NCBI GenBank assembly: GCA_013375475.1
Contig: JABXKD010000005.1
Location: 1-64,000, forward strand
Direction: 5' to 3'
Length of the DNA: 64,000 nt
Origin: Promethearchaeota archaeon
GTDB lineage: Archaea; Asgardarchaeota; Lokiarchaeia; Sigyniarchaeales; SOKP01
Part shown: positions 25,015-26,365 of the stretch, piece by piece
Position numbering within the stretch: the stretch's first letter is position 1
Layout of the letters: each line of letters begins with the position of its first letter
Notes under the pieces: generated by a model
What the model saw: only the letters and a program-made list of their open reading frames with translations
The model's database searches: none
What the model was told of the DNA's origin: nothing
Translations under genes and position numbers: made by a program

Positions 25015-26365
25015 ATGCCAACCGATAAAAAACATTTAAACCTCGTGATTATAGGACATTTTGTTAGGCTAATTAAGCCTTCAGGTTCAAATTGATCACG
25101 GGAAATCAACAATGATGGGCGCAATGCTCATTAAAACTGGAGCAGTAACCGATAGAGAAGCAAGAGAACTTGAGAAGTTAGCAAAAGAGAACGATAGAGA
25201 ATCTTGGTCTTACGCATATGTGTTTGACCGGTTGAAAGAAGAACGAGCACGGGGTATTACTATTGACTTAGCTTTTCGAAAATTTGAAACTAAAACTAAA
25301 TATTTTACTATAATTGATGCACCTGGACACGCGGACTTCGTTAAGAATATGATCACTGGTGCTTCTCAAGCTGATGCTGCTATTTTAGTCGTTTCTGGAA
25401 AGAAAGGCGAAATGGAAGTTGGTGTCGCAGCTAATGGTCAAACTAGAGAACACGCTTATTTAGCGCAAACCTTAGGTGTTAAACAATTAGTAGTTGCCGT
25501 TAATAAAGCCGATGTCTACGATTACAAGGAAGAGCGTTATAACGAAGTAAAAGATGCAGTCTCTGACCTTCTAAAAAATATTGGTTTTCCAGTTAAAAAA
25601 ATTCCGTTTGTACCCGTTAGCGGTATTAAAGCGGAAAATCTTACAGAGAAATCAGATAAACTTCCATGGTACGATGGTCCTACTTTAATTGAAGCGATTG
25701 ATGCTTTTGAACTCCCACCAAAACCTACTGGCAAACCTCTACGAGTTCCAATCCAAGATGCATACAATATCAAAGGAACGGGGGTTGTTCCTGTTGGAAG
25801 AGTAGAAACTGGTGTATTAAAGAAAAATGATAAAATAGTTATCATGCCAACGGGCTTTAAAGGGGAAATAAGAAGCATCGAAATGCATCACGAAGAACAA
25901 AATCAAGCAGAACCCGGTGATAACATCGGATTTAGTATTAGAGGTATTACAATGGCAGATGTTGGCCGTGGCGATGTTATGGGCCACCCAACTGATGTAC
26001 CAACTGTAATTAATCGAAATGGGAACTGGACTGGACAAGTAATTGTTATCTGGCATCCAACAGCGATCGCTCAAGGGTACACCCCTGTAGTTCACGCTCA
26101 CACTGCTCAAGTAGCCGCTAAATTCATCGAATTAAGTAAAAAATTAGATCAAAAGACTGGTGCTGTAATAGAAGACAATCCAAAATTCCTCAAGAAAAAT
26201 GAATCAGCGATAATTAAGCTACAACCTATTAAAAAGCTTTGTCTTGAGAAGTATTCGGAATTTCCCGAATTGGGGCGATTTGCGGTGCGCGACATGGGTA
26301 GAACATCGTGTGTGGGGATTGTCAAGGATTTAGATCCTGGTGAACCTGTAGTTAAAAAAAAGTAG
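25015..26365 (+). CDS. tuf: Translation elongation factor EF-1alpha, two exons (25015-25059 + 25091-26365; 439 aa)
   Basis: Joining gives MPTDKKHLNLVIIGH|IDHGKST (intact P-loop), ERARGITID, DAPGH, NKAD, GRFAVRDMG. Confidence 0.95.
25060..25090 (+). other. Candidate 31-nt BHB-type intron in EF-1alpha mRNA
   Basis: Central helix GGAC(25054-57)/GUUC(25085-88); bulges AU^U and AA^A; exon helix CUCGUGAUU/GAUCACGGG; intron hairpin AGGCU-AAUUA-AGCCU; cuts restore the frame. Confidence 0.85.

Follow-up and report, generated by a model that had tools for sequence, protein, structure and literature searches.

Putative BHB-type mini-introns within G-domain codons of translational GTPase genes in an Asgard archaeon

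A 2020 paper names only two BHB introns in archaeal mRNAs, those of crenarchaeal cbf5 and of a Haloferax 5'-UTR (PMC7714728). The cbf5 pre-mRNA intron of Crenarchaeota (Watanabe 2002, Yoshinari 2006, Yokobori 2009; PMC2738675, PMC7714728, PMC5829648) lies within protein-coding sequence, its gain and loss are lineage-specific (PMC2738675) and, as the title of Yoshinari 2006 suggests, its host has a hetero-oligomeric EndA (PMC5829648). The inserts described here resemble it in these respects, the last as a prediction. They differ in that the genes encode aEF-1alpha, aIF2-gamma and a member of the EF-2 family in an Asgard-like family, that several positions of a single gene and three paralogous genes of a single genome are occupied, and that a G-K insertion site in the P-loop is common to two paralogues. 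Moreover, the splicing of cbf5 was established experimentally, whereas the present introns are known from sequence alone. The endonuclease that splices tRNAs likewise acts on the mRNA intron in the HVO_1309 5'-UTR of Haloferax volcanii, as confirmed in vivo and in vitro; however, this intron is situated in an untranslated leader rather than in codons, and the Haloferax alpha2 enzyme strictly needs the hBHBh' form of the motif (PMC7714728).

The tRNA introns of Asgard archaea have the same motif and enzymes and were gained many times independently, and the exon supplies half of the motif, which limits where introns persist (PMC11291895; bioRxiv 10.64898/2026.10.13.758758). Here, in contrast, the substrate would be an mRNA and the exon half consists of codons apparently tuned via synonymous sites. 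The accessible portions of both sources (PMC11291895; bioRxiv 10.64898/2026.10.13.758758) do not mention mRNA introns, and the word "mRNA" occurs 0 times in that of the preprint. A literature search found no report of BHB introns in Asgard mRNAs or in these GTPase genes; the supplementary tables of the papers on Asgard tRNA introns might list introns outside tRNAs. The splicing motif of HAC1/XBP1 is a pair of stem-loops and not a BHB. In that system, too, a short mRNA intron is excised by a protein endonuclease independently of the spliceosome and RtcB has a part in XBP-1 splicing; however, the endonuclease is IRE1 and the process belongs to a regulated stress response (PMC13149111, PMC8718801).

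The window, that is the whole stretch of 64,000 nucleotides that was analysed, belongs to a genome labelled G000; G014 is its sister, other G numbers denote the genomes of relatives, L numbers single stretches of DNA such as metagenome contigs, and X numbers sequencing runs. Exon 1 of the aEF-1alpha gene (25015-25059, forward strand, as are all features of the window given below) comprises the ATG and 14 codons (MPTDKKHLNLVIIGH), the last two residues of which open the Walker-A loop. A 31-nt insert (25060-25090) lies between the codons for GH and IDHGKST, and exon 2 (25091-26365) follows with 424 codons from IDHGKST and a stop codon. The unspliced frame ends at TGA 25093-25095 after 26 aa, whereas splicing would yield 15 + 424 = 439 aa. 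Exon 2 matched TIGR00483 (EF-1_alpha) with 582.1 bits (cut-off 540.1) over profile positions 16-424 of 427, and since it begins at position 16, the 15 residues of exon 1 fill positions 1-15. The Pfam domains GTP_EFTU, D2 and D3 were all found in exon 2. The start, insert, stop, point of resumption and protein length given in a preliminary description of this DNA were all reproduced.

That description also held that joining after 25059 and 25090 restores GH/IDHGKST (a slash marks a junction). These junctions are the same as the indel boundary against intron-less relatives, because a motif-free blastn comparison with tuf of G014, G044 and G024 placed a 31-nt indel at exactly 25060-25090. The placement 25059/25091 is unique, with no equivalent shift. 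The H/I insert was missing from 37 other tuf genes read in the genus, and a search of the genome for further copies of the 31-nt intron gave only matches at chance level.

The possibility was considered that the insert inactivates the gene, or arose in assembly or binning, and that a functional tuf lies in the unassembled part of the genome. The assembly is divided into 288 contigs with 6.41% contamination, the unspliced frame is very short and run X2 also contains an intron-less tuf allele from a related organism. However, a 191-nt contig from the independent DNA assembly of the same run spans 24999-25189, insert included, with 0 differences, so the insert is present in DNA, a point that the preliminary description had left to be checked. 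It had also allowed for an intact second tuf. The genome, whose completeness is given as 100%, has a single tuf, and four further matches were paralogues only 28-33% identical. Furthermore, dN/dS against G014 was 0.059 over 410 codons, indicating strong purifying selection, and the 424 codons of exon 2 are free of any other defect. An artefact or a dead gene is thus considered very improbable. The RNA-labelled runs X8, X17 and X19 were uninformative either way, as no contig of the source species crosses 25059/25091. One X17 RNA contig begins at 25091 after 5 unmatched letters; its 11 differences over 317 positions assign it to a relative, which may simply be intron-less.

The fold of the putative intron was evaluated with RNAfold over 25036-25108. 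The minimum-energy structure, at -21.8 kcal/mol, was equalled by none of 200 shuffles (z = -4.54). The elements of the fold, which is that of the preliminary description, are an outer exonic helix h, the 5' strand of which (25042-25053) contributes 25042-25051 plus A25053 with U25052 unpaired and the 3' strand of which is 25092-25102; a central helix of GGAC (25054-25057) with GUUC (25085-25088), paired 4/4; a 5' bulge AUU (25058-25060); a 3' bulge AAA (25089-25091); and an intron hairpin h' (25061-25084) in which 25061-63 pair with 25082-84 and 25066-70 with 25076-80. The minimum-energy structure shared with this fold an exon helix of 10 bp, the central helix, the two helices of the intron and, on the 5' side, the 3-nt bulge. 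However, the isolated A25053-U25092 pair was missing, so that the 3' side is a 4-nt loop instead of a 3-nt bulge and one pair; the 3' bulge measures exactly 3 nt only if that pair forms.

The hBHBh' form requires that the exonic helix h and the intronic helix h' each have 2 or more Watson-Crick pairs (PMC7714728). In the tuf insert, h has 10 bp (+ 1) and h' has 3 bp and a 5-bp hairpin, which is the strict form. The rule that EndA cuts each bulge between its second and third nucleotides follows from PMC4090602 and gives predicted cuts after 25059 and after 25090. A loose genome-wide scan found a BHB core with flanking helices at 140,471 of about 9.4e8 combinations of position and length, which corresponds to a chance of about 1.5e-4 per given junction pair. 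A self-splicing group I or II intron was rejected, as the ribozyme core of these takes hundreds of nucleotides and the insert has 31; the region 24800-25400 had 0 Rfam matches at E <= 1.

The exon contribution to the outer helix appears to be specific to this lineage. All 11 of its pairs are possible in G000, whereas the 45 other tuf sequences that were compared allow 4-8. The 30 exon nucleotides that flank the insert differ from those of G014 at eight positions, every one of them paired, and every change is synonymous. It is concluded from this comparison that eight lineage-specific synonymous exon changes build the outer helix, which points to selection on the helix and argues further against an inactivating insertion.

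Inserts of the same kind recur in tuf genes of the same family, where BHB inserts of 29-33 nt occupy four positions other than H/I. Of the 37 other species of the genus that gave a tuf match, 5 have an insert at the G-K site, as do G230 and G281, which represent two other genera, and the metagenome contigs L114, L119 and L150. A D/H insert was found in G209, a V/I insert in G235 and on contig L126, and an insert in the G3 motif in G232. Beyond G000, tuf inserts are thus present in 10 other genome assemblies, always with BHB boundaries that restore the frame, again unlike an assembly artefact. In all tuf inserts that were scored at the junction defined by homology, the central helix was 4/4. 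We conclude that the family carries a set of putative 29-33-nt introns at five tuf positions, with patchy gain and loss.

When the nine sequences of the tuf G-K set were aligned, RNAalifold recovered the BHB unaided. The bases of 94.4% of cells were paired, both partners had changed in 7 pairs, a number reached by 1 of 500 shuffles, and the covariation score was 0.314 vs 0.163 (0 of 500 shuffles). In several sister introns the outer helix is weak, with 0-2 contiguous pairs, and the minimum-energy fold of some is another structure than the BHB. The preliminary description had proposed that tuf genes be aligned for presence, absence and helix covariation. On both counts the sister sets bear it out, with recurring inserts and covarying helices; the H/I insert itself, however, is known from one species, and its own helices are without cross-species covariation.

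These comparisons also bear on translational recoding, in which the ribosome would hop or shift frame over the insert and no RNA would be spliced. The insert is short, forms a hairpin near the start of the ORF and has the stop of the unspliced frame close on its 3' side, which speaks for recoding. In ribosome hopping at T4 gene 60, identical take-off and landing codons flank the skipped stretch; however, no matching codons surround 25059/25091. A frameshift within the insert would introduce about 10 foreign residues into the Walker-A loop, and the frame of exon 2 is open for just 6 codons upstream of 25091. At two of the sister sites, both of the G-K type, the codon of the invariant Walker-A lysine is split as A/AG or A/AA and can therefore be restored only by joining RNA (or DNA); a phase-1 split of the A/AG type is not mendable by a hop. 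Furthermore, inserts of 29, 31, 32 and 33 nt at one site share the same junction and give an identical restored peptide, and the covariation tracks BHB geometry including the central helix between exon and intron. Recoding is accordingly left with next to no probability.

Three candidates from the tuf comparison were rejected. A kinship of the H/I intron and the V/I intron of L126 was suggested by a shared 9-nt word (8 of 2000 shuffles as high), which loses its significance once some 65 comparisons are allowed for. Tuf rows with low scores from other parts of the phylum proved to be contig-end breaks or paralogues and not introns. Rows marked as having one TAA inside held no internal stop within the alignment at the four loci checked, and we infer that the stop counted was the terminal stop of the gene at the end of a longer match.

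The aIF2-gamma gene of the same genome carries a 30-nt insert (C33:22268-22297, gene on the reverse strand), and the same site was occupied in 19 of the 19 species examined by sequence. That these boundaries again restore the frame across so many species is a further point against an artefact. In an alignment of 13 sequences, 87.9% of the cells were paired, 9 pairs had changed on both sides (0 of 500 shuffles) and the covariation score was 0.412 vs 0.167 (0 of 500 shuffles). The changes included a switch from U-A to C-G that pairs an exon His codon with the intron. Two paralogues thus share the G-K site of the P-loop, where some species have the insert in tuf and others have it in aIF2-gamma.

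An EF-2-family GTPase gene in the window has a similar structure. Its first open stretch (55593-55787) contains AHIDHGKTT and ends in ...MTDSD. A BHB-type mini-intron of 30 nt (55788-55817) with an in-frame TAA at 55794-55796 follows, and exon 2 (55818-57881) has 687 codons and a stop, with 95% aa identity to G056. In the intron-less G056, ...TCTGAC is followed directly by GAAGAG..., and blastn placed the indel at 55788 with a length of 30. The central helix UCAG/CUGA was 4/4, the inner helix had 5 bp and the outer helix 1 bp, and the junction is unique. The site is also occupied in G015, G046 and G023. The Pfam domains EFG_III, EFG_IV and EFG_C were found on an ATG-started ORF (56022-57878) within exon 2. 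Among the full-length EF-2-family rows of the genus, 4 of 32 had a short open frame. The gene has ATA at the position of the ATG start of G056 and so might be decaying.

Genome-wide screens were less discriminating. When removal of a BHB was required to fuse two open frames in G000, no class showed an excess over junctions shifted by 1-3 nt. In one example class, 678 fusions at the true junction compared with 628-709 at shifted ones, and for lengths of 26-36 nt with no demand for an outer helix the counts were 51 and 45-78. The first versions of the screen had required an outer helix, which two of the three introns regarded as real do not have. A screen for fusions at Walker-A gave 67 at the true junction compared with 63-91 when shifted, and by eye only tuf and aIF2-gamma were real. 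A scan of same-frame ORF pairs gave 685 pairs, 78 with BHB-like placements, of which only aIF2-gamma and the EF-2-family gene were convincing; a further candidate lies on C275 near 11575-11605 (reverse-strand index). A family search with PF03764 matched 1 of 135 genomes, its E-value threshold being too strict. The lack of an excess means that a BHB motif alone is not diagnostic. The introns are too few for statistical detection, and the screens do not show that others are absent elsewhere in the genome. ARAGORN intron calls were tried as a control of the cut rule and discarded, as a BHB lay within 3 nt of the borders in only 2 of 19; for these tRNA genes, which have several introns, the calls are probably erroneous.

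The enzymes that such introns would need are encoded in the genome. Two EndA paralogues matched PF01974 with 99.1 and 70.4 bits, and both matched TIGR00324; they are 34% identical to each other and each has N- and C-terminal domains. Their ORFs lie on the reverse strand at L035:1453-2055 and L036:1435-2043. One RtcB was found in L037 (PF01139, 560.7 bits). The EndA paralogues are alpha- and beta-like and probably form an (alpha-beta)2 enzyme, the subunit roles and the predicted catalytic competence having been assigned by eye from an alignment and from the catalytic residues. The genome also has four actin-family genes, which are a mark of Asgard archaea, and the lineage looks like one of these.

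All tests that can be made at the level of sequence were favourable to the BHB-intron reading of the preliminary description. The probability that the inserts are genuine pre-mRNA introns of the EndA/RtcB type is put at roughly 85%, and at least three such putative mini-introns are present in this genome, in aEF-1alpha, aIF2-gamma and the EF-2-family gene. The tuf pre-mRNA would fold into an hBHBh' element, half exon and half intron, and the predicted (alpha-beta)2 EndA would cut each 3-nt bulge between its second and third nucleotides. RtcB would then join the exons to restore the Walker-A loop of the full-length protein, and the 31-nt intron would be released, probably as a circle. The spliced RNA is expected to read ...GGACAU/AUUGAUCAC... 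across the junction and the spliced EF-1alpha to yield the junction peptide HLNLVIIGHIDHGK.

The putative mini-introns cluster in those parts of translational GTPase genes that encode the G domain, and the 50,380 bases of the window that could be aligned held no hairpin-like inserts of 30-31 nt other than those in these genes. One explanation is that the BHB elements are real but act as switches, in that EndA cleavage without efficient ligation, or slow splicing, limits or times the synthesis of translation GTPases. That a single genome has three G-domain inserts, each in a different translation GTPase gene, would fit such a role. The tuf motif, moreover, lies only 28-88 nt past the start codon, so that folding and ribosomes must be in competition there, and removal of the Haloferax 5'-UTR BHB intron seems important for efficient expression (PMC7714728). 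However, close relatives free of the insert exist at each site, which speaks against a conserved essential regulatory role, and the patchy distribution resembles neutral gain and loss. A switch is consequently regarded as unlikely. The more general proposal that the introns are a system and not accidents, having colonised the G-domains of three GTPase mRNAs, moving between paralogous P-loop sites and tying translation-factor synthesis to the EndA/RtcB capacity that matures intron-bearing tRNAs, is conceivable but doubtful.

As pre-mRNA introns, the inserts would add dozens of natural cases of BHB elements in mRNA, in genes at the core of translation. [quoted passage not shown] Frames taken from the first ATG downstream of an insert give products without a P-loop, and the annotation of EF-1alpha, aIF2-gamma and EF-2, as well as marker sets and phylogenies, could suffer. 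In the aEF-1alpha gene, the first ATG after the insert is at 25112 and opens an ORF of 417 aa, the product of which is without the P-loop.

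The tuf gene, which encodes aEF-1alpha, is split in this genome (G000), and the coordinates, frames and insert reported in the preliminary description were all borne out. On the forward strand, exon 1 starts at ATG 25015 and comprises 15 codons (MPTDKKHLNLVIIGH). It is followed by an insert of 31 nt at 25060-25090, and exon 2 begins with IDHGKST at 25091 in a different frame and extends over 424 codons before stopping at 26363-26365; the unspliced frame stops at TGA 25093-25095. Exon 2 alone scored 582.1 bits against TIGR00483 (EF-1 alpha, cut-off 540.1) with a match beginning at profile position 16 of 427, so that the 15 residues of exon 1 supply exactly the absent N-terminus. 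There is a single tuf copy in G000, the four further matches being paralogues with 28-33% identity.

An interrupted frame could belong to a dead gene or be an artefact, and it had been proposed to look for the insert in DNA reads. A 191-nt Logan contig of X2, a DNA sequencing run of another sample from a study that may be the source of the window, spans 24999-25189 without a single difference; the same run also contains an intron-less tuf allele from a related organism. When the window was aligned by blastn with the orthologous regions of three relatives (G014, G044, G024), one 31-nt gap was found, at the insert, and its placement is unique because the bases flanking the two borders differ. 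G014 is the sister of G000 in tuf (91% nucleotide identity, SH-aLRT 99), and the dN/dS of exon 2 between them is 0.059. [quoted passage not shown] Furthermore, 11 of 11 outer-helix pairs are possible in G000, versus 4-8 in the 45 other tuf sequences read. Synonymous exon changes with a full outer helix are what would be expected from selection for a splicing substrate, not from decay. The independent contig, these selection data and the recurrence of inserts in relatives contradict a dead gene or artefact.

The RNAfold minimum-energy structure of 25036-25108 (-21.8 kcal/mol, z = -4.54, none of 200 shuffles as good) agrees with the BHB fold drawn earlier, except that the isolated A25053-U25092 pair is absent. 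No Rfam match was found at the insert. By our own division of genome-wide scan counts, the fraction of position/length combinations in G000 that satisfy even a loose BHB definition is only about 1.5e-4. The first two anticodon bases are located in the central helix, as PMC4090602 describes, and in each bulge EndA would therefore be expected to cut between the second and third nucleotides. Applied to the fold, this rule predicts cuts at the limits of the blastn gap. Cleavage by EndA yields 2',3'-cyclic phosphate and 5'-OH ends, which RtcB joins. Splicing of tuf at the RNA level is inferred, because no RNA contig of this species was found across the junction.

Among relatives, 38 of 42 genomes of the genus have a tuf match, and the 5' region was read in all 38; in the rest of the family, rows were selected if their open frame did not exceed 432 aa or if they had two internal stops, and 8 were read. 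Intron-bearing tuf was found in 11 of the 123 family genomes having a tuf match, a survey blind to any intron whose gene still shows at least 433 aa of open frame. The H/I site (sites are named by flanking residues, with a slash for the insertion point) is occupied by 31 nt in G000 only. The G-K site, where the lysine codon is split A/AG or A/AA, holds 29-33 nt in G017, G018, G041, G043 and G045 of the genus, in G230 and G281 of other genera, and in the metagenome contigs L114, L119 and L150. Single genomes carry inserts at D/H (G209, 29 nt), V/I (G235, 30 nt; also contig L126) and in the G3 motif, DAPGHAD/FVKNM (G232, 30 nt with two in-frame TAA); H/I, D/H and G3 were matched by no metagenome contigs. 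In each insert scored, the homology-defined junction falls between the second and third nucleotides of a 3-nt bulge that adjoins a 4/4 central helix.

The comparison of relatives suggested in the preliminary description gave patchy inserts and covarying G-K helices. RNAalifold recovers the BHB unaided from nine G-K sequences, in which 94.4% of cells are paired, seven pairs have both sides changed (as high in 1 of 500 shuffles) and covariation is 0.314 versus 0.163 (0 of 500 shuffles), with slid controls at 0.04-0.06. Three observations contradict ribosome hopping or frameshifting across the insert: the lysine codon is split at sister sites, insert lengths vary (29-, 31-, 32- and 33-nt G-K inserts all give back one same peptide) and covariation follows BHB geometry. 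A nucleotide tree of tuf with 39 rows, built without G049 and G057 (5' ends only), requires at least 5 changes of the G-K intron within one 14-species clade. Splicing may be tolerated rather than used for control: close relatives manage without each intron, which favours tolerance. A 9-nt word, CTAATTAAG, is common to the hairpins of the H/I intron (25066-25080) and the V/I intron of L126; with 8 of 2000 shuffles as high and no significance after multiple comparisons, it is a weak hint that introns may slide or move within tuf. In several genomes elsewhere in the phylum, contig ends interrupt tuf near query residues 100-160 (G162:C7/C1, G159:C53, G077:C169/C36), and something around these residues may hinder assembly in those genomes.

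The aIF2-gamma gene of G000 contains a 30-nt BHB insert with an in-frame TAG on the reverse strand of contig C33 (22268-22297; 2430-2459 of the extracted region L004). It lies between GHVDHG and KTTLV, splitting the Walker-A lysine codon, and the match of exon 2 to NF003077 begins at profile position 23 of 412. In the family, where 123 of 135 genomes have a match, 30 rows have shortened open frames (396-439 aa, against 484-568 aa otherwise); of these, 19 species were read by sequence, 10 were left unread and G024 is truncated where its contig ends. All 19 species examined, across nine genera, have an insert of 29-32 nt at the same site, and the gene is intact in the long-frame control G008. 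The BHB imposed on 13 inserts was 87.9% paired, with nine pairs in which both partners had changed (a count reached in 0 of 500 shuffles) and a covariation of 0.412 versus 0.167. One species has CAC as the exon His codon and CCGU in the intron, so that both partners of a pair in the exon-intron central helix have changed. In the order's three other families the site was unoccupied in those searched, with long open frames of 434-625 aa. Within the genus, the G-K site of aIF2-gamma is occupied in one species set, including G000, G014, G012, G048, G004 and G052, and that of tuf in another (G017, G018, G041, G043, G045), where the aIF2-gamma frame is long; no species of the genus was seen with both filled.

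A third mini-intron of BHB type, 30 nt with an in-frame TAA, lies at 55788-55817 in an EF-2-family gene, between MTDSD and EEEQARGITI (P-loop to RGITI). Its central helix UCAG/CUGA pairs 4/4 and is accompanied by a 5-bp inner helix; the junction has a single possible placement, and the intron-less G056 continues directly through it. Inserts at the same site were found in G015, G046 and G023, and the open frame is short in 4 of 32 full-length genus rows. At 55593-55604 this gene has ATA at the ATG start of G056, and no ATG, GTG or TTG was found in frame upstream of the P-loop; the ATA might be an atypical start, an error or incipient decay.

Six genes of G000 have an uninterrupted GH.D.G motif, and only aIF2-gamma breaks off straight after it; tuf is broken inside its own. 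In a motif-free alignment with relatives (50,380 of 64,000 nt aligned), hairpin-like inserts of 30-31 nt occur in tuf and the EF-2-family gene only. Genome-wide BHB motif screens of G000 did not settle the question of gene preference because chance BHB-like sites fusing neighbouring genes swamp the few real ones, so that the data suggest, without proving, that translational GTPase genes are favoured. According to PMC7714728 (2020), just one additional BHB intron, that of cbf5, had been reported before the 5'-UTR case of that paper. In the literature searched, aEF-1alpha, aIF2-gamma, EF-2 and Asgard mRNAs in general yielded no BHB intron, and it is likely, not certain, that such introns have no earlier printed account, because the search took in few subscription journals and no supplements.

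G000 has one RtcB gene and two EndA paralogues (200 and 202 aa, 34% identical), both with N- and C-terminal endonuclease domains. By eye, one retains a Tyr/His/Lys pattern, which we take to be the catalytic residues, and the other lacks the His. The pair fits the (alpha-beta)2 EndA of broad substrate range reported for Asgard archaea in PMC5829648 and bioRxiv 10.64898/2026.10.13.758758. Four actin-family genes were found in G000 (best E = 2e-132) and none in each of four archaeal control genomes. We take these four genes as a sign of an Asgard archaeon.

Just upstream of tuf, some 1.8 kb (23079-24896) has no counterpart in G014, G044 or G024; its ORFs (23309-23968, 24110-24466, 24512-24889) gave no Pfam matches, and it is a variable island beside the conserved tuf promoter region. 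Towards the 3' end of ORF 60431-62101 on the reverse strand, at about 60468, G014 (region L227) carries 39 nt that the window lacks. On contig C263 (3809-3957), tRNA-Ile(GAT) and tRNA-Ala(TGC) are adjacent, the arrangement of bacterial rRNA operons, in keeping with the 6.41% contamination stated for the assembly. A SelB-like GTPase (GHIDSGKT) is encoded on contig C122. On the forward strand of contig C282, two long open frames are separated by an in-frame TGA (index approximately 8567) that falls at the third Cys of a CxxCxxCxxxCP ferredoxin-type motif and looks like a selenocysteine codon.
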